Assembly: GCA_045644325.1 (NCBI GenBank)
Contig: JAZRGT010000010.1
Span: forward strand, 48,596-112,595
DNA length: 64,000 bases
Source of the DNA: Eubacteriales bacterium
GTDB lineage: Bacteria; Bacillota; Clostridia; Oscillospirales; CAG-272
Reading direction: 5' to 3'
Part shown: positions 3,027 through 51,024 of the stretch, piece by piece
Position numbering within the stretch: position 1 is the stretch's first letter
Layout: each line of letters opens with the position of its first letter
The notes under the pieces: model-generated
Seen by the model: the letters and a program-made list of their open reading frames with translations, nothing else
Database searches by the model: none
Told to the model about the DNA's origin: nothing
Translations under genes and position numbers: made by a program

Positions 3027-3033
3027 AAATTCA

Positions 3034-3067
3034 ATCCGGATACAAATTTTTTGTATCCGGATTTTTC
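3034..3067 (+). terminator. rho-independent terminator after the M23 gene
   Basis: Stem atccggatacaa/ttgtatccggat followed by ttttc. Confidence 0.75.
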
Positions 3068-3117
3068 TAATTAACGCTTGCACATTGTGAACTATTTGTG
3101 AATTGTTCAAAAACATC

Positions 3118-3146
3118 TTGACAACAAGAACGATTTGTGATATTAT
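3118..3146 (+). promoter_or_regulatory. sigma-A type promoter of the T-box operon
   Basis: TTGACA (3118-3123), exact 17-nt spacer, TATTAT (3141-3146). Confidence 0.7.
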
Positions 3147-3164
3147 TTATATATATTTTAATAC

Positions 3165-3420
3165 AAAGGCATTGATCGGGATAGCGTGAAATAAGGATGT
3201 TACAGAGAGCCGTTGTCAGGTGAAAAACGGTACGGACTGTTTCGCGCAAGTCACTCGGGAGCCGAGGAAAAGAAAGCTGATTTCAGCCGTAGAATTCCTC
3301 CGTATGACTGCGTTAAAGTCTATAATAAGCGGCGCACACGCGCAATTTGAGTGGTACCGCGGGTTATGAATTTTCGTTCAGCTCGTCTCAAGATTTTTCT
3401 TGGGGCGAGCTTGCTTTTTT
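3165..3420 (+). promoter_or_regulatory. T-box leader (tRNA-sensing transcription attenuator), probable valine specifier
   Basis: AG box AGAGAG (3204-3209). Distal loop with GGTGAAA. Conserved T-box sequence AATTTGAGTGGTACCGCG (3344-3361). Terminator hairpin gctcgtctcaag/cttggggcgagc (3381-3410) plus T-run (to 3420). The Stem I layout can be aligned to the B. subtilis glyQS leader. Confidence 0.85.
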
Positions 3421-3429
3421 GGAGGTAAA

Positions 3430-5712
3430 ATGAACAGCATTTACGAAATTGACAAACAAATCAAAGCGATGGCGGGCAGAATTGCCGCGCTACGCGAAAT
3501 AGAAGGATATACAGCCGAATATATGGCCGAACGCACAGGTGTTACCGTTTCGGAATATCTCGATTGCGAGGCGGGTCGCGCAGACCTCACCTTTGCCTTT
3601 CTCTTCCGCTGTGCTTCGGCGCTCGGAATCGACGTTACCGAAATTATTGAAGGTACTGCGCCGAGATTGAAATCCTATACGCTTACGCGCAAAGGCAAAG
3701 GTCAGCGTATCGAGCAGGCACACGGAATGACCTATTACAATATCGCTCATTCCTTTGCCGACAGAACCTCGAACCCCCTTTACGTCCACTGCGAGTATTC
3801 CGCTAAGGCAGAGGAAAGTCCCATTGCCGTTACTTCTCACGAAGGTCAGGAATGTGACATTGTAATCAAAGGTAAGCTCAAGGTACAGATAGGCGAGCAT
3901 ACAGAAATCCTCGAGGAAGGTGACAGCATTTATTATAACAGCTCCACTCCTCATGGAATGATCGCACTCGGAGGCGAGGATTGTTATTTCTATGCAATCG
4001 TTCTTCTCCCCGACGAGAACAAAGAATCTGCATCCACAGTTAAGATCGAAGCCGCTCCCGCCAAAAAGCGAGATACCGAGGCGCGTGTTTACAACAAGTT
4101 TATCACCACCGAAGAGGATGAATTCGGCGCACCTCTTTCGATCACTTATAAAGGCGAAAACAGCTTCAACTTTGCATACGATGTAGTTGACGCTCTCGGC
4201 AGAACCAAGCCCGATAAGCTTGCTATGATGCATATCGGTGAAGACGGAACAGAGACGCGCATTACCTTTGCTCAGATGAAAAGAGCAAGCGCACAGTGTG
4301 CAAACTACTTCAAGTCGCTTGGCATCAAGCGTGGCGACAGAGTTATGCTAGTTCTCAAGCGCAGATACCAATTTTGGTACGCTATGATTGCGCTTCACAA
4401 GCTTGGAGCTATCGCTATTCCAGCCACCAATCAGCTTAAGACGCATGACTACGAATACAGATTCAAAACTGCGGGAGTTAAAGCAATTATTTGCGTTAAT
4501 GACGATTACGTCATCGAGCAGACAGAAGAGGCTCTCGTGACCAATCCCGACGTTGCTATCAAGATCCTTGTTGGCGGCGAGCGTGACGGTTGGAGAAACT
4601 TCAACGAAGAGTACACCCTCTTCAGCAGTCACTTTGACAGAACCGATGATTCGCCTTGCGGTGATGATCCCATGCTTATGTACTTCACCTCGGGTACATC
4701 AGGTTATCCCAAGATTGCGCTTCACAATTACAAATATCCTCTCGGACATTTCCATACCGCAAAATATTGGCATTGCGTAAATCCCGACGGTCTCCACCTC
4801 ACGATTTCGGATACCGGTTGGGCAAAAGCAATGTGGGGTAAGCTCTACGGTCAGTGGCTCTGCGAAGCAGCTATCTTCGTATACGACTTCGATAGATTTG
4901 ATGCAGCAAAGATTCTTCCTCTCTTCAGAAAGTACAATATTACTACTTTCTGTGCACCTCCCACAATGTACAGAATGATCATTAAGGAAGATCTTTCCAA
5001 ATACGACCTCAGCTCTATCGAGCATGCGACCATCGCGGGCGAAGCGCTCAACCCCGAGGTATTTCGTCAATTTGAGAAGCAGACCGGTCTTAAGATAATG
5101 GAAGGATTCGGTCAAAGCGAAACAACTCTTGTTATCGGTAATCTTGCCGGAAGATCTCACAAGATCGGTTCTATGGGCAAGCCCGTTCCTACCTACAACG
5201 TTGATCTCTTTGATCCAGAGGGCAACACAGTCGGCATCGGTACTCCCGGTGAGATCGTTATTCATACCGAAAACGGCGCACCTTGCGGTCTCTTCTGTCA
5301 GTATTATAATGACGTCGAAAAGACCTCAGAGGTTTGGCACGACGGCATTTATCACACGGGCGACCTTGCTTGGCGTGATGAGGACGGATTCTTCTGGTAC
5401 GTTGGACGTGCAGATGACGTAATCAAGTCCTCCGGATACCGCATCGGCCCGTTCGAAATCGAAAGCGTTATTATGGAGCTTCCTTACGTTCTCGAATGCG
5501 GTGTATCCGCAGCCCCTGATGAGATCAGAGGTCAGATCGTCAAGGCAAGCATTGTCCTTACCAAGGGAACGGTGCCTTCGGATGAGCTCAAGAAGGATAT
5601 CCAGAATTACGTCAAGAAGCGCACCGCGCCTTACAAATATCCGAGACTCGTTGAATTCAAAACAGAGCTCCCCAAGACGACCAGCGGAAAGATTATCCGC
5701 AGTAAGCTTTAA
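3430..5712 (+). CDS. XRE-HTH / cupin / AMP-forming acyl-CoA synthetase fusion protein (medium- or branched-chain acyl-CoA synthetase type)
   Basis: N-terminal HTH (YTAEYMAERTGVTVSEYLDCEAG). Cupin core (SHEGQECDIVIKGKL...GDSIYYNSSTPHG). Adenylation motifs YFTSGTSGYPK, GFGQSETT, YHTGD, GRADDVIKSSGYRIGPFEIES and PKTTSGKIIR. The true start is ATG 3430 behind GGAGG (3421-3425); the track start 3400 lies inside the T-box terminator. Confidence 0.85.
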   Translation: MNSIYEIDKQIKAMAGRIAALREIEGYTAEYMAERTGVTVSEYLDCEAGRADLTFAFLFRCASALGIDVTEIIEGTAPRLKSYTLTRKGKGQRIEQAHGMTYYNIAHSFADRTSNPLYVHCEYSAKAEESPIAVTSHEGQECDIVIKGKLKVQIGEHTEILEEGDSIYYNSSTPHGMIALGGEDCYFYAIVLLPDENKESASTVKIEAAPAKKRDTEARVYNKFITTEEDEFGAPLSITYKGENSFNFAYDVVDALGRTKPDKLAMMHIGEDGTETRITFAQMKRASAQCANYFKSLGIKRGDRVMLVLKRRYQFWYAMIALHKLGAIAIPATNQLKTHDYEYRFKTAGVKAIICVNDDYVIEQTEEALVTNPDVAIKILVGGERDGWRNFNEEYTLFSSHFDRTDDSPCGDDPMLMYFTSGTSGYPKIALHNYKYPLGHFHTAKYWHCVNPDGLHLTISDTGWAKAMWGKLYGQWLCEAAIFVYDFDRFDAAKILPLFRKYNITTFCAPPTMYRMIIKEDLSKYDLSSIEHATIAGEALNPEVFRQFEKQTGLKIMEGFGQSETTLVIGNLAGRSHKIGSMGKPVPTYNVDLFDPEGNTVGIGTPGEIVIHTENGAPCGLFCQYYNDVEKTSEVWHDGIYHTGDLAWRDEDGFFWYVGRADDVIKSSGYRIGPFEIESVIMELPYVLECGVSAAPDEIRGQIVKASIVLTKGTVPSDELKKDIQNYVKKRTAPYKYPRLVEFKTELPKTTSGKIIRSKL

Positions 5713-5714
5713 TT

Positions 5715-6389
5715 ATGGAAACCAAACGATTAACCCTATTTGCGGGTCATTACGGCAGCGGCAAAACGAACGTCGCCTTGAATTACGCCTTTAATTTGCG
5801 TAAGCAGGGATACGATACCGTCATCGCCGATATTGATACTGTAAATCCGTATTTCAGAACAAAAGACAGCGCAGCAGAGCTTAAGGAAGCAGGAATAGAT
5901 CTGATAGCCTCCGAATTTGCGGGGTCCAACGTCGACCTTCCTGCTCTTCCGGCGGCAATGTACGATATTATATTTCAGTCGGAAAAATACGCAGTAATTG
6001 ATATCGGAGGTGACGATCGAGGTGCATTCGCACTCGGAAGATATACACCCGAAATACTGCGAGAAAACAATTACAATATGCTGATGGTCATTAATATGTA
6101 CCGTCCGCTGACTTCCACGCCCGAAGACACCGTTGAGATCCTAAAAGAAATCGAGGCGGCTTCCGGAATACCTTTCAACGGACTTGTGAACAACTCAAAT
6201 TTAGGTCCCTCAACAGATATCGAGACAATAGAATCGTCTTTAGCGTATGCTAAAAAAGTTTCGGAGCTTTCCGGACTGCCTATCGTAGCAACGAGTTGTC
6301 CCGATAGTGATGTGTTTTCAACCTTTGAGGGATTCGGAAACGAATACGGCGAAGTTATCAAACTCAAACTCCAAAACAAAATCATATAA
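5715..6389 (+). CDS. P-loop NTPase (MinD/ParA/CooC-like superfamily), function unknown
   Basis: Walker A GHYGSGKT near the N-terminus and a Walker-B-like VIDIGGDD. It starts 2 nt after the synthetase stop codon. Confidence 0.55.
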   Translation: METKRLTLFAGHYGSGKTNVALNYAFNLRKQGYDTVIADIDTVNPYFRTKDSAAELKEAGIDLIASEFAGSNVDLPALPAAMYDIIFQSEKYAVIDIGGDDRGAFALGRYTPEILRENNYNMLMVINMYRPLTSTPEDTVEILKEIEAASGIPFNGLVNNSNLGPSTDIETIESSLAYAKKVSELSGLPIVATSCPDSDVFSTFEGFGNEYGEVIKLKLQNKII

Positions 6390-6400
6390 GGAGAACAGAA

Positions 6401-6607
6401 ATGGCAAAATTAACTTTTAACATTGAAAAATGCAAGGGCTGCGGACTTTGCGTATCTGCTTGCCCCAAGCACTTGCTCATAGTGTCTAAATCCAAGATCA
6501 ACCAGAAGGGACATTACGTTGCTGAAATCACCGATATGGAATCCTGTATCGGATGCGCATTCTGCGCTACTATGTGTCCCGATTGCATAATCAAGGTAGA
6601 AAAGTAA
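6401..6607 (+). CDS. 2-oxoacid:ferredoxin oxidoreductase delta subunit (2x[4Fe-4S] ferredoxin)
   Basis: Two CxxCxxCxxxCP motifs (CKGCGLCVSACP; CIGCAFCATMCP). AAGGAG RBS. Confidence 0.85.
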   Translation: MAKLTFNIEKCKGCGLCVSACPKHLLIVSKSKINQKGHYVAEITDMESCIGCAFCATMCPDCIIKVEK

Positions 6608-6619
6608 GGAGAAATTAAA

Positions 6620-7678
6620 ATGGCTGATAAAGTTTTAATGAAGGGCAACGAAGCCATAGCTGAAGCGGCTATAATGGCAGGTTGCAGACACTATTTTGGA
6701 TACCCCATTACTCCTCAGACCGAAATTGCCGCTTATATGGCTAAGAGAATGCCTAAGATCGGCGGTACCTTCCTTCAGGCTGAGAGCGAAGTTGCGGCTA
6801 TTAATATGGTTATAGGCGTTGCTGCTGCAGGAAAAAGAGTAATGACCTCGAGCTCCAGCCCCGGAATCTCGCTGAAGGCTGAAGGTATTTCCTACCTCGC
6901 AGGATGCGACCTTCCCGCACTCATCATCAACGTTCAGCGCGGCGGCCCCGGTCTCGGCGGCATTCAGCCCTCGCAGTCCGACTATTTCCAGGCAACAAAG
7001 GGTGGCGGACACGGTGATTTCAGAAACATCGTTCTCGCTCCCGCTTCAGTTCAGGAAATGGCAGATCTCACTGTCAAGGGATTTGATCTTGCTGACAAAT
7101 ACAGAATGGTAGCAATGATCCTCGCTGGCGGTACTATGGGTCAGATGATGGAGCCCGTTTCTCTTGATGTTTCCGAGCAGGCTACATACGAGAAGCCTTG
7201 GGCTGTTACTGGCACCAAGCTCGAGCGCAAGCACAATATCGTGAACTCTCTCTCTCTCGTTCCCGAGGAGCTTGAGCGTTTCAATTTCGAAAGATACAAC
7301 AAATATAAGACTATTGAAGAGAATGAAGTTCTTGTTGAAGAATATATGACAGAGGATGCAGATATCGTTCTCGTCGCTTACGGCATCGCGGCTCGCGTTT
7401 CCAAAAATGCAATCGCAGCAGCTCGCGCAGAAGGTATCAAGGTTGGTCTCGTTCGCCCCATCACTCTCTGGCCTTTCCCCAAAGCAACTCTTGAGAAGCT
7501 TTCGCACACAGCAAAAGCATTCATTTCAGTCGAAATGTCTATGGGTCAGATGATAGAGGATGTTGAGCTTGCAACCAGATGCCGCAAGCCCGTACTCCTC
7601 TGTAACCGTTCGGGCGGTATGATCCCCACTCCCGAGGCAGTTCTCGCTAAAATCAAAGAAGCAGGAGGTATTAACTAA
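6620..7678 (+). CDS. 2-oxoisovalerate-type 2-oxoacid:ferredoxin oxidoreductase alpha subunit (VorB-like)
   Basis: N-terminus MKGNEAIAEAAIMAGCRHYFGYPITPQTEI is typical of the alpha subunits. Gene order is delta-alpha-beta-gamma. Confidence 0.8.
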   Translation: MADKVLMKGNEAIAEAAIMAGCRHYFGYPITPQTEIAAYMAKRMPKIGGTFLQAESEVAAINMVIGVAAAGKRVMTSSSSPGISLKAEGISYLAGCDLPALIINVQRGGPGLGGIQPSQSDYFQATKGGGHGDFRNIVLAPASVQEMADLTVKGFDLADKYRMVAMILAGGTMGQMMEPVSLDVSEQATYEKPWAVTGTKLERKHNIVNSLSLVPEELERFNFERYNKYKTIEENEVLVEEYMTEDADIVLVAYGIAARVSKNAIAAARAEGIKVGLVRPITLWPFPKATLEKLSHTAKAFISVEMSMGQMIEDVELATRCRKPVLLCNRSGGMIPTPEAVLAKIKEAGGIN

Positions 7679-8421
7679 TGGTAGTTTTTGATAAACCGCA
7701 TGCGCTGACAGATGCACCTCTGCATTACTGTCCCGGATGCACACACGGCATCATCCACCGTCTCGTTGCTGAAGCAATTGATGAATTCGGCATCGAAGGT
7801 AAGACAATTGGTATCGCACCCGTTGGATGCTCGGTAATGGCATATAACTATTTTGCTTGCGATATGGTTCAGGCAGCTCACGGCCGCGCTCCGGCTGTTG
7901 CAACCGGCGTTAAGAGAGCTAATCCCGATAATATCGTATTTACATATCAGGGTGACGGCGACCTTGCTTCTATCGGTATGGCAGAAACCGTTCACGCTGC
8001 TACGAGAGGTGAGAATATCACCATAATCTTCGTTAATAATGCAATCTATGGAATGACCGGCGGTCAGATGGCTCCTACCTCTCTTCCCGGTCAGGTAACT
8101 CAGACCTCCCCTTACGGACGTGATATTAACTCCGCAGGCTACCCCATCAGAGTTTGCGAAATGCTTGCTCAGCTCGATGGCGCTGCTTATCTTGAACGAG
8201 TTGCCGTAAACAACGTAAAGAACGTTCGAAAAGCTAAAGCCGCAATCAAGAAGGCTTTCGAAAATCAGATCAACGGCGTAGGCTTCTCGCTTATTGAAGT
8301 AGTTTCGACTTGTCCTACCAACTGGGGACTTACCCCTGAGGGCGCGCTTCAGTTCGTTGAAGAAAAGATGATTCCTTATTACCCCCTCGGCGTATATAAG
8401 GATAAGACCAAGGAGGCGTAA
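7678..8421 (+). CDS. 2-oxoacid:ferredoxin oxidoreductase beta subunit (TPP-binding)
   Basis: CPGC Fe-S ligands and TPP motif YQGDGDLASIG...NNAIYGMTGGQ. The start overlaps the alpha stop (TAATG). Confidence 0.85.
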   Translation: MVVFDKPHALTDAPLHYCPGCTHGIIHRLVAEAIDEFGIEGKTIGIAPVGCSVMAYNYFACDMVQAAHGRAPAVATGVKRANPDNIVFTYQGDGDLASIGMAETVHAATRGENITIIFVNNAIYGMTGGQMAPTSLPGQVTQTSPYGRDINSAGYPIRVCEMLAQLDGAAYLERVAVNNVKNVRKAKAAIKKAFENQINGVGFSLIEVVSTCPTNWGLTPEGALQFVEEKMIPYYPLGVYKDKTKEA

Positions 8422-8423
8422 CG

Positions 8424-8960
8424 ATGAAGACTAATCAGATTTTGATTGCCGGCTTCGGCGGTCAGGGTGTCCTCTTCACCGGCAAAATGCTTGCATATAA
8501 GGGTATGTACGAGGGCAAGGAAGTAAGCTGGCTTCCTTCATATGGACCCGAAATGCGTGGCGGAACCGCTAACTGCAGCGTTATCCTCAGCGATACTCCC
8601 GTTGGATCGCCTATCGTATCCAATCCCGATATTCTTCTCGTAATGAACCTTCCTTCGCTTGATAAGTACGAAAATTCTGTACCCGCAGGAGGCAAGATTT
8701 TTGTAGATTCTACCTTTATCGAGCGCAAGGTCGAGAGAGACGACGTTGACGTATATTATATTCCCGCAACCAAAATTGCTTCTGACGCAGGCGTTCCCAC
8801 CCTTGCTAATATGGTTCTTCTCGGTAAGGTTATCAAAGAAACGGGTGTTATCAGCCTCGAAGGTATGAGAACAATGTTCGAAAAGATCATTTCCGCAAAG
8901 CGTCAGAACCTTATTGACACCAATCTCGCTACAATCGAACTCGGTTATAACTTTCAGTAA
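8424..8960 (+). CDS. 2-oxoacid:ferredoxin oxidoreductase gamma subunit
   Basis: GFGGQGV motif and a size of 178 aa typical of gamma subunits. AAGGAGG RBS. Confidence 0.8.
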
Positions 8961-8980
8961 TAGAGAAAGGAACTGTTAAA

Positions 8981-10045
8981 ATGGATATCAAAATAGAAAA
9001 GATCGCCGTTCCCAAGCAGAAGCCAGATGAATCCGCCCTTGGTTTCGGACAGTACTTCACCGATCATATGTTTATTATGGACTACACTCGCGAAAAGGGC
9101 TGGCACGATGCTAGAATCGTTCCTTTCGGAAACCTCTCGCTCCATCCCGCGTGCACTGTATTCCATTACGGCGCTGAAATCTTCGAGGGTATGAAGGCAT
9201 ACAGAACCGCTGACGGTTCGATTCAGCTTTTCAGACCCGAGCAGAACTTTGCTCGACTCAACTCTTCTGCAGAAAGAATGAGACTGCCTCTCGTTGATGA
9301 GGAATTTGCACTTAAAGCGCTTACTGAACTCATCAAGATCGATGCCGATTGGGTTCCTCACGCTCCCGGAACTTCGCTTTACATCCGCCCTTTCCTCTTT
9401 GGAGCAGACCCCAAGCTTGGAGTTCACTCGATTGACAGATCCGTATTCATCATCATTCTCTCCCCTGTTGGTTCTTACTACAAGGAAGGTATCAACCCCG
9501 TTAAGATTATGATCGAAACCGAGGACGTCAGAGCCGTAAAGGGCGGCACGGGTTACACCAAGTGCGGCGGTAACTACGGAGCTTCCAACAGAGCGGGCGA
9601 AAAGGCAGAGCAAGCAGGCTACTCGCAGGTACTCTGGCTCGACGGTGTTGAGCGCAAGTACATTGAGGAAGTTGGCGCAATGAACGTAATGTTCAAGATT
9701 GACGGCGAAATCGTCACTCCCGCGCTCACCGGTTCTATTCTTCCCGGCATTACGAGAAAATCTATTCTCCAGATTCTCCGCGATGAGGGTGCGAACGTTT
9801 CCGAAAGACTTCTTTCTATCGATGAGCTTATCGAAGCGCTTGAAAACGGCAAGCTTGAAGAAGGTTGGGGTTGCGGTACTGCGGCGGTAGTTTCTCCTAT
9901 AGGTCAGCTTTACTACAACGGAAAGACTTACACGATCAATGACAACAAGATCGGCGAAACCACACAAAAGCTTTACGATACTCTCACAGGCATTCAGTGG
10001 GGCAGAATCGAAGATACAAGAGGCTGGGTATATCCCATCAAATAA
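8981..10045 (+). CDS. ilvE: branched-chain amino acid aminotransferase
   Basis: 354-aa class IV aminotransferase. FGQYFTDHMF, HYGAEIFEGMKAY and GGTGYTKCGGNYGAS resemble the long-form IlvE (YbgE/YwaA type). Confidence 0.85.
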   Translation: MDIKIEKIAVPKQKPDESALGFGQYFTDHMFIMDYTREKGWHDARIVPFGNLSLHPACTVFHYGAEIFEGMKAYRTADGSIQLFRPEQNFARLNSSAERMRLPLVDEEFALKALTELIKIDADWVPHAPGTSLYIRPFLFGADPKLGVHSIDRSVFIIILSPVGSYYKEGINPVKIMIETEDVRAVKGGTGYTKCGGNYGASNRAGEKAEQAGYSQVLWLDGVERKYIEEVGAMNVMFKIDGEIVTPALTGSILPGITRKSILQILRDEGANVSERLLSIDELIEALENGKLEEGWGCGTAAVVSPIGQLYYNGKTYTINDNKIGETTQKLYDTLTGIQWGRIEDTRGWVYPIK

Positions 10046-10059
10046 TTATTACATATTTC

Positions 10060-10086
10060 AGGCTGTCGCTTTTTGCGACAGCCTTT
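10060..10086 (+). terminator. terminator-like hairpin ending the T-box operon
   Basis: Stem aggctgtcgc/gcgacagcct. The downstream T tract is weak (tttactatt). Confidence 0.5.
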
Positions 10087-10090
10087 ACTA

Positions 10091-10119
10091 TTGATTTTTA
10101 GTTCGAAATGTGATATAAT
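10091..10119 (+). promoter_or_regulatory. sigma-A type promoter (extended -10) with flanking inverted repeat
   Basis: TTGATT, 17-nt spacer, TATAAT preceded by TGtga. Inverted repeat aatgtgat (10107-10114) / atcacatt (10128-10135) brackets the -10 box. Confidence 0.55.
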
Positions 10120-27144: not shown

Positions 27145-27180
27145 AAGCCTCCCGAATAAATTCGGGAGGCTTGATTTTTA
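27145..27180. terminator. bidirectional terminator
   Basis: 12-bp stem aagcctcccgaa/ttcgggaggctt plus a T-run. Confidence 0.75.
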
Positions 27181-29385
27181 TTTTTCCCAATAAGTGATCT
27201 TATCGCCCTGCTTGAAAGGCAAGCCTATTGTTGCTGTAGGCTCGGCGTAAATATTCACGGGCACCTTCAAAGTCTGTAAAATGTAAGTGTCAACCTTCAA
27301 ATAATTGTTGGAGGTCTTTCCGCTCGACATAGTGGCGAAATTCTCTGCAGAGGTCGGCCACAGGCAGGTCTGAGGGTTGAGATATCTATAAAGCTCCTCA
27401 GTACCGCCATCGTAACCGTGATGAGATACCTGAACTATATCGCACTTAAGCTCATTCTTATATCTGTCGCTCATAATATCTGAGCCTTCCCAACGGACGT
27501 CGCCGAGATAGGTAATCGTCTGTCCTGCTATCGTAATTCGGGATACCATCGTACAATCGTTGAAGAAATAGAGCTTGGTAGGATGCAGATCTTCCTGAGT
27601 ATAGATAATTTCAACGCAGGCATTTCTGATATAGAACTTCATTCCGGTATGAACGATATACTTTTTAACTCCTCCGAGCGTACCCGAAAGATTAGCAAAA
27701 TCGCTGTTCATATAGTAGTTAGGATTGTAACCATTATATGCGTAGGAGCCGGAAGGAGTGTTGCAGTACATTCCTTCAAGCTTGATCTTGCTAGAATAGT
27801 TCTTGCAAAACGTCGAGAAGTTCGTATAATGGTCCCAGTGCTCATGAGTTAAGATCCAAGCAGCAATAACTATCTTTCCGTCGGAACGCTTGTTAAGCGA
27901 ATCAAGCGTGTTGTAGAGCTGTACGTAGTCGCTGTTCGAGTTTCCTCCGCCGTCATAAACGATAAAGGAGCCGTCCTCGAGTGTGATTATATGGCAAAGG
28001 CCGAAATTACCCGCGGCGTAGCTGAGGGACATCTGAGTGATAGCCGGCTCTGCGATCTTTTCGTAAGCGGGAACCATTTCGGGTGTTGTATATTCGGGAA
28101 GATTATACTTACCTTCAGGGCAGCTAATGATTCTTACGGAATTTTCAACGGGCACGTAATAAACATAAAGCAAGCCGTCCTTAGAAGTGTAAGCCTTATG
28201 TACATTGCCTGCCAAAGTATTCTGCATATACAGCGAGAAACCGTTTTCTTCAAGAGTCTTGCAATATGCCTCGTATGCATCAAGGGTTGTTTCGTTAAAC
28301 ATCACCTGAAGATTTCCATAGCCAGCATCCTGCACTCCAACAATCTTTCCTTCGGTAAATGCGGGAAAATCAACGTACCAATTGCCGTAGTCAAATACAG
28401 CACTTTCACCTTCAAGCATTCTGAACGAAACAGTACCGTCCCCGTTCTTTTTAAGATTAGCCTTGAAATAATTTTCAAAGTTCTTTACGGCAAGCTCGGT
28501 AGTCGTTTCATTCCATCCCGCTACAACTATCTTATTACCCAATACAGCAAATCCGTATCCGTTATAATCAAGCGTAGACAAGAATTCAGCCGTTTCGGGA
28601 CGTGTAGTGTTACCTACAAGTATCTCATAATTCTGCGAGATATCTGTACCTTTCTTGTACCAGTCTGTTGATAAACCAACCTTGACATCAGCTATGTCCT
28701 GAATGTAAGTACGGAGCTCTTTAGCATAAACGACGTCAAGATCAAGTCTGTCATTTTCATCATTCGCGTTCATCGAATTATCAAGTGAATCGAGATATAC
28801 AACATTCATATTAAGCTGACCGTTATCAATAAAAGTGATCTGCTTGAGCGGTTCGCTAACATAACAGAGATTTTCAGGGAGCATCAGAACGCCTTCTGAT
28901 AACGAGGAAAGATAATTATCCATAAAATACTGAACGCCCTTTGAAACCAGTGAAGTGCGCTCGGCGTTAATAACAATTTTATTGCCTATTACGGTTATGA
29001 TAAAGCAAGTCGAATCAACGCCCTCAAGGGCTTTAGCGGACTCGGGACGAGTGGTGTTACCAATGAGAATTTCCTTGGCAGCAGTGATCTCGTCAGTAAT
29101 TACCCCGCCCTTGATCCAGTCATCCGTGATCGGGACTACGTAATCACCGAGCATTTCATTTAACTGCTTTCTCAAGGATACAGCAGAAGTAATTACCTCA
29201 TTTGTAGAGTTTTCGGGTCTGATAACCGTATATTCGGAAATCAAATAGGGTACGCTCTTCCCTTCAGCTACGGCGCTGTTCTCTTCTTCGCCCGAATCGC
29301 CGTTCGGACCACAAGCTGTCATAGCTGGAAGAAGTAAGGATGCAACAATCAACAATAAAGCTGTCAATAAAATGATCTTTTTCAT
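27178..29385 (-). CDS. predicted lipoprotein: duplicated N-terminal domain + MBL-fold metallo-hydrolase (ComEC-type beta-lactamase fold)
   Basis: Signal peptide with a lipobox-like AMTAC. An internal repeat carries EIL(I/V)GNTTRPE(S/T)A twice. MBL motif THEHWDHY and distal QVSHHG. Start at ATG 29385 behind GAGGT. Confidence 0.75.
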   Translation of the reverse strand: MKKIILLTALLLIVASLLLPAMTACGPNGDSGEEENSAVAEGKSVPYLISEYTVIRPENSTNEVITSAVSLRKQLNEMLGDYVVPITDDWIKGGVITDEITAAKEILIGNTTRPESAKALEGVDSTCFIITVIGNKIVINAERTSLVSKGVQYFMDNYLSSLSEGVLMLPENLCYVSEPLKQITFIDNGQLNMNVVYLDSLDNSMNANDENDRLDLDVVYAKELRTYIQDIADVKVGLSTDWYKKGTDISQNYEILVGNTTRPETAEFLSTLDYNGYGFAVLGNKIVVAGWNETTTELAVKNFENYFKANLKKNGDGTVSFRMLEGESAVFDYGNWYVDFPAFTEGKIVGVQDAGYGNLQVMFNETTLDAYEAYCKTLEENGFSLYMQNTLAGNVHKAYTSKDGLLYVYYVPVENSVRIISCPEGKYNLPEYTTPEMVPAYEKIAEPAITQMSLSYAAGNFGLCHIITLEDGSFIVYDGGGNSNSDYVQLYNTLDSLNKRSDGKIVIAAWILTHEHWDHYTNFSTFCKNYSSKIKLEGMYCNTPSGSYAYNGYNPNYYMNSDFANLSGTLGGVKKYIVHTGMKFYIRNACVEIIYTQEDLHPTKLYFFNDCTMVSRITIAGQTITYLGDVRWEGSDIMSDRYKNELKCDIVQVSHHGYDGGTEELYRYLNPQTCLWPTSAENFATMSSGKTSNNYLKVDTYILQTLKVPVNIYAEPTATIGLPFKQGDKITYWEK

Positions 29386-29416
29386 TAGATTACCTCTTGT
29401 ATTTAATATTGTATAT

Positions 29417-29446
29417 AGTATAGCAGATAAACCACTCATTTGTCAA
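29417..29446 (-). promoter_or_regulatory. sigma-A type promoter of the MBL lipoprotein gene
   Basis: Minus strand: TTGACA (29441-29446), 18-nt spacer, TATACT (29417-29422). Confidence 0.55.
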
Positions 29447-29494: not shown

Positions 29495-29570
29495 TGGAGC
29501 TGCTAATCAGAGTCGAACTGATGACCTCATGCTTACCAAGCATGTGCTCTACCAACTGAGCCATAGCAGC
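29495..29570 (-). tRNA. tRNA-Thr (anticodon GGU), CCA encoded
   Basis: 76-nt cloverleaf folded by hand. Acceptor GCTGCTA/TAGCAGC, D arm GCTC-AGTTGGTA-GAGC, anticodon arm CATGC-TTGGTAA-GCATG, T arm ATCAG-TTCGACT-CTGAT, then T-CCA. Confidence 0.9.
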
Positions 29571-29677: not shown

Positions 29678-29753
29678 TGGAGCTGCTAATCAGAGTCGAA
29701 CTGATGACCTCATGCTTACCAAGCATGTGCTCTACCAACTGAGCCATAGCAGC
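29678..29753 (-). tRNA. tRNA-Thr (anticodon GGU), CCA encoded, identical to copy 1
   Basis: 76/76 identity to 29495-29570, so the cloverleaf is the same. Confidence 0.9.
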
Positions 29754-30191: not shown

Positions 30192-31709
30192 TTATTCAAT
30201 CGTCATATATAAAATGGAGTGAATATCAGAATATCTGTAGCCTTCGTATTTATATGAAGTTGAATCTTCAAAAAGAACATAATCTCCGTCTATCGGATCG
30301 TATGCTGCAGAATCACAAACCATAAACTTAAGCTTAGACGCCGTCTTTTCCTCAGGATTCAAGCACTCGGCGAAAACGAGATAATGATTCTTGTTGCCCT
30401 TCATAACCTGCACTACGATTCCTTCGGGGTGTTTAGCCAAAAGCTCTTTAAGCTTTGTCCTCGTGGGATAGTAGATCTTATTCATCTGAACGGTTTTTCC
30501 ATCAACGTTGAATTGATTGATAACGTACTCCCAACGCATATAAATGGGATCACCGCTCAAATTAGTGGTGGTTGAATCCGAACCGTATTTGCCCGTATTT
30601 GCCAGTCCTACGGTATACGGGTCCGCAACGAGATTGCCTTCCTGGCCCGAACGGAAATCATACCCCTTTGTTTTGACCGCGCCCATATTATTAAGAACCA
30701 TAGCCACCGCACAATTTCCGCAGCCTTCGTCCATCCAGCAGTAGTTGCCGTTAGGTTCCCGCGAATCGATTGCAAATTTCTTTTTGACGCCGTTTGAGGT
30801 GAAGCTCAAAAACTTCAGTTGAGTCGCATCCCAATCGCTTGTATAGATATTGTTTTGGCTATACCATGTAAAAGCGTCTCGATCTACAACAGTAACGGTA
30901 AAGCTGCGGCTAAGTCCTTCAACTGATGCAGTTATGGTAGACTTACCGAGACCGAGGGCGCACCAAGTACCGTCTTCTCCGATAAGTATAACGTCTTCAT
31001 TGCTGGAGGACCACGTTATATCGTCAGTAAATACGTTATAAGGGTGCTTTCTTGCATAAAATACGCCCGTGGAATAAAGACGAACCTTGGTGGAGGTAAA
31101 AACAACAGAAAGCTTTTCGGTTTTGATCGGCTCTATCGTCCAAAGCTGATTTTTATAATCCGAGGTTATCTCCTGAAGCTCGGTGTAATAGTCACTATAC
31201 TCGGTGACCGTATTCGACTGAGTCATGACCAGCTTATTATTCTTGGTGTTAGAGGGCGCAAATATAAACCGATTGTTATAGTATTCAACTATATCAAACT
31301 TAGAGGAAGCTCCCGCTGAAGAGAGCTTGGTCTTCTTGATCTTACTATCCTTTGAGGTATCCAGCGTATAGCTATATGCATATTCCCCATTATCGTTCTG
31401 CGGGATAATCATATATGTACCGTCGTCACAAGGCAAGAGGTGGAACACCTGCCCCATACTGCTCTCGGAATACTTTTCAAGATAAGATTTAGCTTTGGTC
31501 TTTGCCGTATACTTATAAGAACCAAGATATAAGCCTGTGGAGACGTTGCGGATTCGGCAAACCATTTCAGTAAGCTCTACGTCATCCGTTACCGAATCGA
31601 CCGTTGCATTAGCCGCAAAAACACTCACGCCGGGGTAACATTGCACCAGCGTTAATATGGCAAAGAAAACGCAGATGGCGCGTTTTGATTTGTCATTAAA
31701 GAAATTCAT
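30192..31709 (-). CDS. secreted protein: ricin-type beta-trefoil lectin + Big_2 Ig-like domain + C-terminal papain-like (C39-like) cysteine peptidase domain
   Basis: Signal peptide (AILTLVQCYPGVSVFAANA). QxW-type motif NQLWTI. Big_2-like SSSNEDVILIGEDGTWCALGLGKSTITASV. Candidate nucleophile region GCGNCAVAMVLNNMG and His in NHYLVFAE. Confidence 0.55.
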   Translation of the reverse strand: MNFFNDKSKRAICVFFAILTLVQCYPGVSVFAANATVDSVTDDVELTEMVCRIRNVSTGLYLGSYKYTAKTKAKSYLEKYSESSMGQVFHLLPCDDGTYMIIPQNDNGEYAYSYTLDTSKDSKIKKTKLSSAGASSKFDIVEYYNNRFIFAPSNTKNNKLVMTQSNTVTEYSDYYTELQEITSDYKNQLWTIEPIKTEKLSVVFTSTKVRLYSTGVFYARKHPYNVFTDDITWSSSNEDVILIGEDGTWCALGLGKSTITASVEGLSRSFTVTVVDRDAFTWYSQNNIYTSDWDATQLKFLSFTSNGVKKKFAIDSREPNGNYCWMDEGCGNCAVAMVLNNMGAVKTKGYDFRSGQEGNLVADPYTVGLANTGKYGSDSTTTNLSGDPIYMRWEYVINQFNVDGKTVQMNKIYYPTRTKLKELLAKHPEGIVVQVMKGNKNHYLVFAECLNPEEKTASKLKFMVCDSAAYDPIDGDYVLFEDSTSYKYEGYRYSDIHSILYMTIE

Positions 31710-46262: not shown

Positions 46263-47435
46263 TTATAAGCTTGCGCAAACTTTCATTACATAATCGCCGA
46301 AATCCTTGCAGCTTGCGCCGTCGCGTCTTCCGGTGATCTTGAGCTCTGCGTCGGGTGCGGTACAAATATCAAGTGCCTTTCCGAGCTTCTTCGCCTCATC
46401 TACGAAACCAATGTGTTTGAGAAGCAGCTCTGCGGCACGGAGCATACTCGAAGGATTTGCATAATCGCCGTCACCGCGCTCGATCATTCTCGGAGCAGAG
46501 CCGTGGATCGCCTCAAACATCGCGTATCGGCTACCGATATTTGCGCTTCCCGCGGTACCTACGCCGCCCTGAAGCTGTGCCGCCTCATCGGTAATGATGT
46601 CACCGTAAAGGTTGGGGAGCAAGAATACTTGGAAATCAGAGCGACCTCTCGTGTCAACGAGCTTTGCGGTCATAATGTCGATGTACCAATCTTCTACGGT
46701 AAGAGTAGGATATTCCGCAGCAGCAATATTTCTTGCTATACGAGCAAACTTTCCGTCAGTCTTCTTCATAATGTTTGCCTTAGTAACAACCGCTACGTTA
46801 GTCTTACCGTTCTTTACCGCAAAATCAAACGCCATACGCGCAATTCTTTCACAGCCGGCGTCGGTAGTTACCTTAAAGTCACAGCAAAGGTATTCGGGTA
46901 TCTCTACACCTCTGCTTCCGAGAACGTATTCACCCTCGGTATTCTCTCTGAAGAACGTCCAATCCACACCTTCCTCGGGAATTGCTACGGGACGTACGTT
47001 AGCAAAGAGATCGAGTTCTCGTCTCATAGCAACGTTAGCGCTTTCAAGCTCCTTGGCTCCGGTTCCTCCCTTGGGAGTTGTTGTGGGACCCTTGAGGAGG
47101 ACGTGGCAATCCTTGATCTCAGCAAGAACATCTTCGGGAATAGCTTTACCGCATGCGATTCTGTTCTCGATTGTAAGACCATTGATATCTCTGAGCTCGA
47201 CCTTACCAGATGCTACTGCATCCTTGAGCAGGTATTCAAGAACTCTGCGAGCCTCTGCGGTAATGATCGGACCTATGCCGTCGCCACCGCAACAGCCGAT
47301 AACGATCTTATCGAGTTTAGCGTAATCGACTGCCTCGGGAGCATTCTTCATCATTTCTGCACGAGCATACTGCTCTCTGAGAAGCGTTTCAAACTGCGCT
47401 ACCGCTTCATTAATATACTGTTCGTTGTTCGCCAT
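46263..47435 (-). CDS. isocitrate/isopropylmalate dehydrogenase family enzyme, probable NAD(P)-isocitrate dehydrogenase
   Basis: Family signature NLYGDIITDEAAQLQGGVGTAGSANIG. Its context behind the aconitase supports the call. Start at ATG 47435 behind GAGGT. Confidence 0.75.
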   Translation of the reverse strand: MANNEQYINEAVAQFETLLREQYARAEMMKNAPEAVDYAKLDKIVIGCCGGDGIGPIITAEARRVLEYLLKDAVASGKVELRDINGLTIENRIACGKAIPEDVLAEIKDCHVLLKGPTTTPKGGTGAKELESANVAMRRELDLFANVRPVAIPEEGVDWTFFRENTEGEYVLGSRGVEIPEYLCCDFKVTTDAGCERIARMAFDFAVKNGKTNVAVVTKANIMKKTDGKFARIARNIAAAEYPTLTVEDWYIDIMTAKLVDTRGRSDFQVFLLPNLYGDIITDEAAQLQGGVGTAGSANIGSRYAMFEAIHGSAPRMIERGDGDYANPSSMLRAAELLLKHIGFVDEAKKLGKALDICTAPDAELKITGRRDGASCKDFGDYVMKVCASL

Positions 47436-47446
47436 AGCAATTAACC

Positions 47447-49378
47447 TCACTTGTTTTTAGCAGTAGCGGCAATAAGACCGCCTGCAAGAATAATTTCAAT
47501 CTGTCTATCGGAAAGAGCACACTCAAGCTCGATGGAATCGCCTGTGTTCTTATCCTTGAGTATATACTTACCGCTCTTAACGCTTTCAAACATACAGCTG
47601 ATGGAAATATCATCGCCCTCGGAGATCTTATCGTAATCATCAGCATTTACAAATGTCAGAGGAATAATACCAGCATTAATAAGGTTATCCTTATGGATAC
47701 GTGCAAAGCTCTTTGCAACGACTGCCTTAACGCCGAGGTAAAGAGGAACGAGAGCCGCGTGTTCTCTTGAAGAGCCCTGACCGTAGTTGGAGCCGCCAAC
47801 GATAATGCTTCTTCCCATAGCCTTTGCTCTCGCGGAGAATTCGGCATCGCATACGTTGAAGCAGAACTCGCTCATCTTGGGAATGTTTGAACGGTACGGA
47901 AGAATAGCCGCACCCGCGGGCATAATGTGGTCGGTGGTAATATTATCGCCAACCTTAAGGGAAACGGCAACGTTAAGCTCATCCTCAAGAGGCGTGGTAT
48001 CGGGATAAGACTTGATATTGGGACCCTTGATAACTTCGGCTGTCTTAGCTTCCTCAACGGAAAGAGGAGGAATTACGCCGCTGTCATCAATTATAAATGA
48101 ATCAACCTTAATATTGGGGTACTCACCGAGTGTTCTCGGATCAGTGATCACACCTGTAATTGCGGATGCTGCCGCAACTTCGGGAGATACAAGATATACG
48201 CCTGCATCTCTAGTGCCGCTTCTGCCCTCAAAGTTTCTGTTGAAGGTTCTAAGGGAAACGCCCTTGGATTCGGGAGAGAATCCCATACCTATACAAGGAC
48301 CGCAAGCGCATTCAAGAAGTCTTGCGCCGGAATTGATGATATCAGTTAGCGCACCACTGCTTGACATCATACTGAGAACCTGCTTTGAACCGGGCGAAAC
48401 AGACATTCCAACCTCGGGAGAAACAGTCTTTCCCTTAAGAATTGCCGCAACAGTATACATATCAACGGCAGAAGAATTGGTGCAAGAACCTACACAAACC
48501 TGAGTAACGGGAGTGCCGGCAATCTCGCTGATTTTTTTAATATTATCGGGAGAATGAGGACAAGCAGCCATAGGCTCGAGCTCCGAAAGATTGATATCAA
48601 TCACTCTGTCGTAAACGGCATCGGGATCAGAATATACGGGAGTAAAGTCATCTTCTCTGCCCTGCGCTCTTAAGAAATCCTTGGTAATCTCGTCGGCGGG
48701 GAAAATAGACGTGGTAGCACCAAGCTCGGCTCCCATATTGGTTATAGTCGCTCTCTGAGGCACGGTAAGCGTCTTAACGCCCTCGCCGCCCCATTCAATG
48801 ATCGCGCCAACTCCGCCCTTTACAGAAAGAATACGGAGTATCTCAAGGCTTACGTCCTTGGCGGTAACCCAAGGAGAAAGCTTACCGGTAAGATTAACCT
48901 TGAACATCTTCGGCATTACCATACAGTAAGCACCTCCGCCCATTGCAACGGCAACGTCAAGACCGCCTGCTCCGAACGCGAGCATACCGATACCGCCTGC
49001 GGTAGGAGTATGGCTGTCAGAACCGATAAGAGTCTTTCCCGGAACGCCGAATCTCTCAAGGTTAACCTGATGACAAATTCCGTTGCCGGGGCGCGAGTAC
49101 TGAATACCGTACTTTGCAGCGGCAGTTCTGATAAATCTGTGGTCGTCAGCGTTCATAAAACCCGACTGGAGTGTATTGTGATCGATATACGCTACGGAAA
49201 GCTCGGTTTTTACACGGTCGATGCCCATAGCCTCAAACTCGATATACGCCATAGTACCGGTGGCGTCCTGAGTGAGAGTACGGTCGATCTTTATTGAAAT
49301 CTCGCTTCCGGGCGTCATATCACCCGATACGAGATGTGCGCTAATTATCTTTTCAGCTATTGTTTTCGGTGTCTTCAT
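47447..49378 (-). CDS. aconitate hydratase
   Basis: 643 aa with Fe-S ligand regions GSDSHT, VGSCTNSS and CGPCIGMG, plus a swivel domain. Confidence 0.85.
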   Translation of the reverse strand: MKTPKTIAEKIISAHLVSGDMTPGSEISIKIDRTLTQDATGTMAYIEFEAMGIDRVKTELSVAYIDHNTLQSGFMNADDHRFIRTAAAKYGIQYSRPGNGICHQVNLERFGVPGKTLIGSDSHTPTAGGIGMLAFGAGGLDVAVAMGGGAYCMVMPKMFKVNLTGKLSPWVTAKDVSLEILRILSVKGGVGAIIEWGGEGVKTLTVPQRATITNMGAELGATTSIFPADEITKDFLRAQGREDDFTPVYSDPDAVYDRVIDINLSELEPMAACPHSPDNIKKISEIAGTPVTQVCVGSCTNSSAVDMYTVAAILKGKTVSPEVGMSVSPGSKQVLSMMSSSGALTDIINSGARLLECACGPCIGMGFSPESKGVSLRTFNRNFEGRSGTRDAGVYLVSPEVAAASAITGVITDPRTLGEYPNIKVDSFIIDDSGVIPPLSVEEAKTAEVIKGPNIKSYPDTTPLEDELNVAVSLKVGDNITTDHIMPAGAAILPYRSNIPKMSEFCFNVCDAEFSARAKAMGRSIIVGGSNYGQGSSREHAALVPLYLGVKAVVAKSFARIHKDNLINAGIIPLTFVNADDYDKISEGDDISISCMFESVKSGKYILKDKNTGDSIELECALSDRQIEIILAGGLIAATAKNK

Positions 49379-49379
49379 T

Positions 49380-50747: not shown

Positions 50748-51024
50748 CACAATACCTCCGTAATTTTTTAATATTATACTACATTTCAATTCAAATTGCA
50801 AGCCTTTTGATGAATTTTTTCATATTTTATTGATATTTTATGTTTTTAACGATTAATCTGCAACTTTTTGGCATTCATAATGCATTTCATTCCGTCATTT
50901 GACAATATTTGTTAACATTCTTTTCAATTCAATAAAACTAACTTCAAATATTTTTGCAAAAGGACTTGATTTTTCTGTAATTTTCTGCAATAATATATAT
51001 ACACTCAATACTCGGAGGTTTACT

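Follow-up and report, generated by a model that had tools for sequence, protein, structure and literature searches.

The window analysed here is a stretch of 64,000 nucleotides (64 kb) from Eubacteriales bacterium (GTDB lineage Bacteria; Bacillota; Clostridia; Oscillospirales; CAG-272), located on contig JAZRGT010000010.1 of assembly GCA_045644325.1 at positions 48,596 to 112,595 of the forward strand. Coordinates refer to this window unless another locus is named. Near its beginning lies an operon in which a promoter and a T-box leader precede seven genes, encoding an acyl-CoA synthetase fused to an N-terminal helix-turn-helix (HTH) and cupin module, a P-loop NTPase, the four subunits of a 2-oxoacid:ferredoxin oxidoreductase and the branched-chain aminotransferase IlvE (Table 1). 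T-box leaders switch genes on in response to the uncharged cognate tRNA. Rumen and gut anaerobes have long been known to use, and often to require, branched-chain volatile fatty acids for the synthesis of valine, leucine and isoleucine. In gut Firmicutes the genes for this use and their control are poorly defined, and the locus offers a testable gene set. An earlier note, made by a model from the DNA letters and a list of open reading frames (ORFs), had read the operon as a candidate T-box-controlled route from isobutyrate to valine. Here, we report an analysis of this operon by profile searches, RNA folding and comparison with related loci.

The leader matched the T-box family RF00230 over the complete model (positions 1-219) with 97.6 bits, above the gathering score of 93 (E = 3.2e-20), and was the sole riboswitch-type match to Rfam within the window. 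The specifier columns of this alignment hold GUC; hence, the leader specifier is valine. In the covariance-model alignment the T-box sequence AAUUUGAGUGGUACCGCG contains the UGGU bulge, which fits a tRNA with discriminator A. On folding, the terminator hairpin at 3380-3411, followed by a U run that reaches 3420, had a free energy of -23.8 kcal/mol (z = -7.6), and the antiterminator at 3347-3391 one of -11.4 kcal/mol, with an unpaired 7-nt bulge UGGUACC. The strand CUCGUCUCA serves both as the 5' arm of the terminator and as the 3' strand of the antiterminator, and the two structures are therefore mutually exclusive.

The operon is well delimited, because the upstream M23 peptidase gene ends in a terminator of its own (3033-3063) and the next gene downstream, encoding a GNAT protein, is served by a separate promoter (10091-10119). 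The seven ORFs follow each other with gaps of 2, 11, 12, -1, 2 and 20 nt, and ribosome-binding sites of the GGAGG or AAGGAG type precede six of them, the exception being the second gene. These results bear out what the earlier note had described at the locus, namely the promoter, the complete T-box leader with a terminator running to 3420, the closing hairpin and seven tightly packed genes with gaps of 2-20 nt and one overlap of 1 nt; the search with RF00230 was a check it had itself proposed. Its list of products agrees with the Pfam and NCBIfam assignments at the level of families, except that the first product is no plain synthetase: the fused HTH-cupin module had been overlooked.

Table 1. 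Features of the T-box-controlled operon, with the evidence for each; residue numbers refer to the fusion protein.
Feature	Position	Strand	Basis
Sigma-70-type promoter, TTGACA-17-(TG)TATTAT, extended -10	3118..3146	+	Pattern scan, 11/12 matches
T-box leader (Stem I, Stem III, antiterminator)	3163..3393	+	Rfam RF00230
Valine specifier GUC; purine A follows at 3253	3250..3252	+	Covariance-model alignment
T-box bulge UGGU, partner of the tRNA ACCA 3' end (discriminator A)	3352..3355	+	Alignment and folding
Intrinsic terminator of the leader, 14-bp stem and U run	3380..3420	+	Pattern scan and folding
HTH(XRE)-cupin-acyl-CoA synthetase fusion, 760 aa	3430..5712	+	Pfam, NCBIfam, PDB comparison
HTH_3 (XRE), residues 18-72	3481-3645	+	Pfam, 29.7 bits (cut-off 23)
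Cupin_2, residues 134-190	3829-3999	+	Pfam, 46.9 bits (cut-off 27.2)
Catalytic part within the fusion gene	~4160-5709	+	AMP-binding residues 258-615, AMP-binding_C residues 676-754
P-loop NTPase, 224 aa, Walker A GHYGSGKT	5715..6389	+	Weak CbiA/MinD match
Oxidoreductase delta subunit, 2x[4Fe-4S] ferredoxin-like, 68 aa	6401..6607	+	Fer4, 47.6 bits, two stretches
Oxidoreductase alpha subunit, 352 aa	6620..7678	+	NF005507 'VorB', 546.6 bits (cut-off 399); POR_N and PFOR_II
Oxidoreductase beta subunit, thiamine-diphosphate binding, 247 aa	7678..8421	+	TPP_enzyme_C, 82.5 bits
Oxidoreductase gamma subunit, 178 aa	8424..8960	+	PF01558 POR, 130.2 bits
Branched-chain aminotransferase IlvE, class IV type II, 354 aa	8981..10045	+	NF009897, TIGR01123
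Operon-closing terminator hairpin	10060..10084	+	Pattern scan; -19.9 kcal/mol, z = -6.2

The synthetase scored 207.7 bits with AMP-binding and 72.9 bits with AMP-binding_C in Pfam, and its residues 244-758 are 54% identical over 515 residues to Macs of Methanosarcina acetivorans (3ETC; 646.7 bits, E = 4.5e-193). The top NCBIfam model was that of MbcS (NF047394, an equivalog model) with 442 bits; as the cut-off of 850 was not reached, the protein is not a member of this equivalog. The acetate-CoA ligase models scored 351 and 240 bits. Glycine replaces the pocket tryptophan of acetyl-CoA synthetase, as it does in Macs (GFGQSE aligned with GFGQTE), and the equivalent of Macs Trp259 is kept (TAKYW aligned with TAKYW); the roles of both residues in Macs have been described (PMC10455477). 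The preferred substrate of this Macs is 2-methylbutyrate (PMC10455477), and purified MbcS of S. aureus is selective for 2-methylbutyrate and isobutyrate and poor on isovalerate (PMC10026030). The last gene product passes two equivalog models for IlvE, NF009897 with 479.4 bits (cut-off 307) and TIGR01123 with 402.8 bits (cut-off 250), and its best relatives among solved structures are all branched-chain aminotransferases.

A scan for relatives of the synthetase, using one genome per species, yielded at least 588 stretches encoding such a protein, of which the best 80 were examined. All 80 are metagenome-assembled and of Oscillospirales type, labelled as Eubacteriales, Acutalibacteraceae, Oscillospiraceae, Christensenellaceae or Clostridia, and stem from human, ruminant and other animal guts. 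Together with the window, 42 of 81 loci share the order synthetase, P-loop gene, vorD, vorA, vorB, vorG and ilvE. In five loci ilvE has moved to a place directly behind the synthetase gene and in three an adjacent ilvE is missing; 16 are interrupted by contig ends within the cluster, five have a contig end soon after the synthetase, and in the remaining ten a T-box and a synthetase stand alone amid unrelated genes. Where the oxidoreductase genes were fully seen, ilvE belongs to the operon in 47 of 50 loci.

The neighbourhood survey that the earlier note had suggested found synthetase and T-box together throughout: wherever 300 nt or more of sequence precede a synthetase gene, a T-box core motif lies within about 600 nt upstream of it, and the Rfam gathering score was passed by ten T-boxes in eight loci. 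Each leader inspected in the related loci is preceded by its own promoter of the form TTGACA-17-TGnTAtAAT. Leader and synthetase gene are split by an insertion in three loci (L058 at ~1290-1830, L068 at ~7640-8000 and L077 at ~4450-4770). They measure 300-550 nt and separate the terminator of the T-box from the start codon of the synthetase; that of L058 contains two copies of a ~130-nt element with internal inverted repeats and resembles a small mobile repeat.

A second paralogue of the fusion, with an identity of about 62%, is located directly upstream in 49 loci. Moreover, 27 of 81 loci contain an adjacent LeuA-like gene (HMGL-like and LeuA_dimer domains), the best NCBIfam models of which are 2-isopropylmalate synthases, with scores below the cut-off. 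The LeuA-like gene has a T-box motif of its own in 18 of these 27 loci, and the leaders read there carry leucine specifiers; in the other nine it has none and mostly follows ilvE directly, including in L001 and L002. This wider layout with three T-boxes had been missed in the earlier note. L001 and L002, the closest relatives, possess both the isoleucine module and the LeuA-like gene, and the window has neither. Compared with L001 (4950-8000 and 14620-16052), the window passes at 3027-3165 straight from the terminator of the M23 peptidase gene to the valine-type promoter, and its ilvE is followed by the GNAT gene and a sulfatase gene; the synthetases of the closest relatives are 88-90% identical to that of the window.

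The specifiers, read as the codon preceding the closing helix of Stem I, track the synthetase paralogues. They were read by script and, for some leaders, by eye and from the covariance-model alignment. All 47 parsed leaders of the upstream paralogue class carry AUC (isoleucine), and 63 of 66 script-parsed leaders of the class to which the window belongs carry GUA or GUC (valine). Among the three odd and nine unparsed leaders of the latter class, five or six read GUA by eye, all three odd ones included, and two read CUG. The CUG (leucine) specifiers belong to a clade of four genomes at least 91% identical to each other; CUG is present in both complete leaders, those of L021 (7678-7940) and L043, and the leaders of L008 and L054 are cut off by contig ends. 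One locus, L016, has three successive leaders: AUC precedes synthetase 1, GUA the operon with synthetase 2 and CUC a LeuA-like gene. The Rfam alignments confirm the register of the specifier for all three leaders of L016 and for the CUG leader of L021.

Just two positions in the catalytic domain separate the paralogue classes. Position 465, directly after the conserved tryptophan of the GW[G/A]K motif, is alanine in the valine/leucine class and glycine in the isoleucine class; it probably corresponds to a known acyl-pocket residue of acetyl-CoA synthetase. Position 570 is glycine in the valine/leucine class and alanine in the isoleucine class. Of the 81 and 51 sequences compared, 78 and 48 show this signature once one misassigned truncated copy is corrected. 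The CUG clade keeps the valine-type residues A465 and G570, and the isoleucine class is identical at both positions to Macs, which prefers 2-methylbutyrate. From the correlation between specifier and paralogue and from these two class-specific positions, a preference of the window synthetase for isobutyrate or 2-methylbutyrate is predicted. A third paralogue that might serve isovalerate was not seen among the related loci. Since MbcS, in addition, is poorly active on isovalerate, a route to leucine via 2-oxoisovalerate and LeuA seems more likely in this lineage than one from isovalerate.

Thus, the RNA element, its specifier and the gene content are conserved and co-vary across genomes, and we consider it likely that the operon is a unit for the salvage of isobutyrate to valine that is controlled by the demand for valine. 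By the established T-box mechanism, transcription from the operon promoter would halt at the leader terminator as long as tRNA-Val is charged. An uncharged tRNA-Val would pair through its anticodon with the specifier GUC and through its ACCA end with the bulge UGGU, thereby stabilising the antiterminator and allowing RNA polymerase to read into the seven genes. The Macs-type AMP-forming synthetase would then convert isobutyrate to isobutyryl-CoA at the expense of ATP, which yields AMP and pyrophosphate. In a second step, the four-subunit enzyme would act as a 2-oxoisovalerate:ferredoxin oxidoreductase and carboxylate isobutyryl-CoA with CO2 and reduced ferredoxin to 2-oxoisovalerate, which IlvE would transaminate to valine. 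In the relatives, 2-oxoisovalerate would also feed the neighbouring LeuA-like enzyme and thereby the supply of leucine. The synthetase paralogue behind the isoleucine T-box would activate 2-methylbutyrate to 2-methylbutyryl-CoA, from which the same oxidoreductase and aminotransferase would produce 2-oxo-3-methylvalerate and isoleucine.

Substrates and flux direction in this scheme are what we infer from sequence and comparative genomics. Two established properties argue for the biosynthetic direction: T-boxes induce on starvation for their amino acid, and AMP-forming ligases of the ANL enzyme superfamily commit their acid substrate to the CoA ester. Activation by AMP-forming enzymes is effectively irreversible and costs ATP, which suits assimilation more than energy-conserving degradation. 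A role in amino-acid supply is hard to escape, since synthetase paralogues that track isoleucine versus valine/leucine specifiers are joined to a VorB-type oxidoreductase and IlvE and have a leucine-controlled LeuA-like neighbour. The salvage reading of the earlier note gains support from the paralogue-specific specifiers, the LeuA-like neighbour, the kinship of the synthetase with Macs and MbcS and the matches to the VorB and IlvE models, and both its chemistry and its T-box logic are consistent with the comparative data. As background it had cited the known physiology of rumen and gut anaerobes, which make valine, leucine and isoleucine by reductive carboxylation of isobutyrate, isovalerate and 2-methylbutyrate, respectively. 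Here the route to leucine would more likely run via 2-oxoisovalerate and LeuA.

Several points weigh against this salvage proposal. The first concerns the oxidoreductase, the substrate of which rests mainly on context, because the 'VorB' model NF005507 passed by the alpha subunit is an NCBI subfamily model and not an equivalog, and the beta, gamma and delta subunits stay below the NCBIfam cut-offs, although their Pfam domains are present. Its nearest solved structures come from a '2-keto acid' enzyme of generic type and from enzymes for 2-oxoglutarate. As only the alpha subunit passes a named model, the complex could be a general enzyme for pyruvate, 2-oxoglutarate or 2-oxobutyrate which, together with a synthetase acting on acetate or propionate, forms a generic carbon-assimilation unit placed behind a T-box by chance. 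We regard this as highly unlikely: the synthetase scores far better with MbcS and Macs (3ETC) than with the acetate-CoA ligase models, it has the Macs-like glycine at the position of the acetyl-CoA synthetase pocket tryptophan (PMC10455477), ilvE is a regular part of the operon, and every associated T-box specifier is an isoleucine, valine or leucine codon. The presence of IlvE, the isoleucine, valine and leucine T-boxes and the branched-chain type of the synthetase give contextual support for a putative preference of the oxidoreductase for branched-chain 2-oxoacids and acyl-CoAs and, likewise, for the predicted carboxylating direction.

The second point is that 2-oxoacid:ferredoxin oxidoreductases and IlvE are reversible, and on gene content alone all three enzymes could converge on isobutyryl-CoA as a primer. 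IlvE and the oxidoreductase would then run oxidatively from valine via 2-oxoisovalerate to isobutyryl-CoA, in a Bkd-like manner, and the synthetase would salvage external isobutyrate; the product would serve as primer for branched-chain fatty acids or for energy in a Stickland-type metabolism. The best NCBIfam model of the synthetase fits this alternative, as the documented role of MbcS is the supply of fatty-acid primers (PMC10026030). We nevertheless judge it improbable. The T-box induces on uncharged tRNA-Val, and a route that consumes valine makes no sense during valine starvation. The paralogue-specific isoleucine and valine/leucine specifiers and the LeuA-like neighbour with its leucine T-box fit the supply of amino acids, not of lipids. 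Moreover, energy-conserving degradation normally ends in a phosphotransacylase and a kinase or in an ADP-forming synthetase, not in an AMP-forming ligase.

Further points arise from the related loci. Tandem loci such as L001 (7640-7712) have no terminator between synthetase 1, of the isoleucine class, and the valine promoter and leader, so that isoleucine-controlled transcripts run into the valine T-box. Synthetase 1 has no oxidoreductase of its own in the relatives; the oxidoreductase and IlvE appear to be under a valine (or leucine) T-box only, and isoleucine starvation alone would not obviously induce both. Basal read-through, other copies of the oxidoreductase or co-limitation for several amino acids are possible solutions to this puzzle. 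Finally, the relatives are metagenome-assembled genomes picked by similarity of the synthetase, and the counts given above are thus not phylogenetically independent.

The second characteristic of the operon is the fusion itself, in which about 240 N-terminal residues, the HTH followed by the cupin, precede the catalytic part. The four-domain fusion recurs in more than 100 protein clusters of 759-787 residues. Mean identity within a class is 0.61-0.66 for the HTH, 0.74 for the stretch between the domains, 0.69-0.75 for the cupin and 0.74 for the catalytic domain. Between the classes it is 0.46, 0.46 and 0.58 for the HTH, the inter-domain stretch and the cupin, respectively, compared with 0.69-0.87 for the catalytic parts, and 11 of 13 class-discriminating positions fall in the N-terminal 220 residues. 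The cupin-type residues His137, Glu141 and His175 are conserved at 97% or more. The conservation within classes, the divergence between them and the retention of the His/Glu/His set argue that the module is functional and paralogue-specific. We read it as a conserved, paralogue-specific regulatory part with putative DNA-binding and ligand-sensing functions.

An exhaustive search with residues 1-235 yielded stand-alone HTH-cupin proteins of about 185 residues with 35-45% identity. In seven of eight places examined, the gene for such a protein lies immediately upstream of an unfused Macs-like synthetase, the latter being 43-52% identical to the catalytic part in the window. In one place of this split type, represented by two identical contigs, a divergent P-loop (46%)-vorD (50%)-vorA (75%) cluster is located 86 nt from the HTH-cupin gene; no T-box motif was found in this 86-nt gap, which is too short for a T-box. 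In the split form, the HTH-cupin protein thus occupies the place expected of a transcription factor that acts locally on this gene set, whereas the family of the window has it fused to the enzyme and possesses a T-box; the fused module has probably descended from such a local regulator of synthetase genes.

A conserved palindromic operator was not found in the promoter regions of about 120 leaders by inspection, k-mer counts and an inverted-repeat search, of which the k-mer analysis was weak because its anchoring partly fell on the K-turn sequence TTGACGAAGA. In the window, two copies of the heptamer TTGTGAA with a spacing of 12 nt precede the -35 element (3091-3110), and TTTGTGAT is found at the extended -10 element (3133-3140). 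The TGTGAA repeats are similar in the three closest relatives, L001, L002 and L004, and are not present in more distant loci. They could be a candidate operator for the fused HTH module or a mere A/T-rich upstream element.

It is possible, and we propose it only tentatively, that the synthetase is a bifunctional enzyme and transcription factor comparable to BirA. The HTH-cupin module might bind its own promoter and respond to the branched-chain acid, to the acyl-adenylate or CoA ester or to the amino-acid product. The operon would then compute the logical AND of demand, sensed by the T-box, and of supply or feedback, and the paralogue-specific modules and specifiers would define separate isoleucine and valine/leucine channels that share one oxidoreductase and one aminotransferase. 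The opposite view is that the extension has no regulatory function, being either a remnant of evolution or an appendage with a structural role only, and that the T-box is the sole regulation. The T-box alone would suffice as a switch, and the lack of a conserved palindromic operator in the promoter regions inspected is in line with this view. Against it, HTH and cupin are about as conserved within a class as the catalytic domain, most class-discriminating positions lie in the N-terminal region, the cupin His/Glu/His set is almost invariant and the stand-alone homologues keep the same neighbourhood; a mere leftover is therefore unlikely.

The P-loop protein is annotated as hypothetical in the sources. 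Its match to CbiA/MinD, with 24.9 bits, is below the cut-off of 25.4, and a sequence search against the PDB gave nothing meaningful. Foldseek matched its AF2 model of medium confidence (pLDDT 69) to NTPases of the SIMIBI class with TM scores of ~0.55, e.g. SRP GTPases, ArsA and ATPase-type HypB. No ribosome-binding site is recognisable in front of the gene, which starts 2 nt past the stop codon of the synthetase gene (5713-5715), so that its translation may be coupled to that of the synthetase. It sits between the synthetase gene and vorD in loci of the fused type; in the single split-type place with a vor cluster, it immediately precedes vorD. NifH-like electron transfer was considered and rejected, since the protein has a single cysteine that is not conserved. 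As a guess, this oxidoreductase-associated NTPase is possibly a maturation or assembly factor of the oxidoreductase.

Elsewhere in the 64-kb window, we found no further copies of the synthetase or the oxidoreductase and no canonical ilv or leu genes. A cluster on the minus strand at 46263-50801 encodes an HMGL-like protein of 473 aa that lacks a LeuA dimer domain, an aconitase of 643 aa in a single chain and a dehydrogenase of the Iso_dh family (395 aa). It looks like a citrate-to-2-oxoglutarate branch, probably of the Re-citrate-synthase type, and not like the leucine genes leuABCD. Two identical tRNA-Thr(GGT) genes, 107 nt apart, are located on the minus strand at 29495-29570 and 29678-29753, and two long ORFs on the same strand, at 27178-29439 (753 aa) and 30192-31709 (505 aa), have no Pfam match at E <= 1e-6.

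At the species level, the arrangement is shared by no fewer than several hundred genomes of uncultured Oscillospirales that live in the guts of humans, ruminants and other animals, and the T-box specifier provides a built-in functional label that names the amino acid served by each paralogue. If the proposed function is true, metagenomes can be scored for the capacity to convert branched-chain acids to amino acids, and the locus helps to explain the cross-feeding of branched-chain acids and the effects of feeding such acids to ruminants. In addition, the T-box regulon would be extended to a ferredoxin-dependent, CO2-fixing salvage route, and the synthetase would represent a new regulator-enzyme fusion.

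Among known systems, the leader resembles the branched-chain T-boxes of Firmicutes, as found at the ilv-leu operon, at ileS, valS and leuS and at transporter genes. It shares their RNA architecture and attenuation logic, with a specifier codon followed by a purine, the UGGN bulge and overlapping terminator and antiterminator. In contrast to these, which control the canonical pathway, tRNA ligases or transporters, the present leader controls an acid-activating synthetase, a ferredoxin oxidoreductase and IlvE; moreover, in the relatives three differing specifiers split a single locus between two synthetase paralogues and a LeuA-like gene. A T-box survey published in 2008 makes no mention of oxidoreductase, CoA or ferredoxin (PMC2494555). 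The synthetase has the catalytic fold and the motifs of Macs (3ETC) and MbcS. It differs from both by its ~240 extra N-terminal residues with XRE-type HTH and cupin, by the T-box and by its oxidoreductase and IlvE partners. In comparison with MbcS, it scores below the equivalog cut-off, and MbcS itself feeds the synthesis of fatty acids and not of amino acids.

The proposed chemistry has precedents as well. Allison and co-workers reportedly described, during the 1960s-70s, how rumen bacteria form branched-chain amino acids by reductive carboxylation of branched-chain volatile fatty acids. In methanogens, the 2-oxoisovalerate:ferredoxin oxidoreductase works anabolically, and 'L-isoleucine biosynthesis V' is a pathway in MetaCyc. 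The three steps, from the acid via acyl-CoA and 2-oxoacid to the amino acid, are the same. The known cases are physiological or enzymological, whereas here the genes for the three predicted steps are united in one regulated operon of gut and rumen bacteria of the Oscillospirales type. As late as 2020, a paper on Prevotella described the reverse route, at the level of enzymes, as 'not proven yet' (PMC7709123).

The N-terminal module is comparable to stand-alone XRE-HTH/cupin regulators (~185 aa; e.g. PDB 1Y9Q, HTH_3 family), with which it shares the order of HTH_3 and Cupin_2. The difference is that the module here forms one covalent chain with the synthetase, the gene of which was presumably once under its control. 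The fusion of HTH, cupin and synthetase resembles enzyme-repressor fusions of the BirA type by analogy only. Full-text literature searches, in which few subscription journals were covered, and the 2008 T-box survey (PMC2494555) yielded no report of a T-box-controlled synthetase/oxidoreductase/IlvE operon, nor of an HTH-cupin-synthetase fusion. The physiology and each of the component families are already known, and it is their genetic and regulatory arrangement that looks new.

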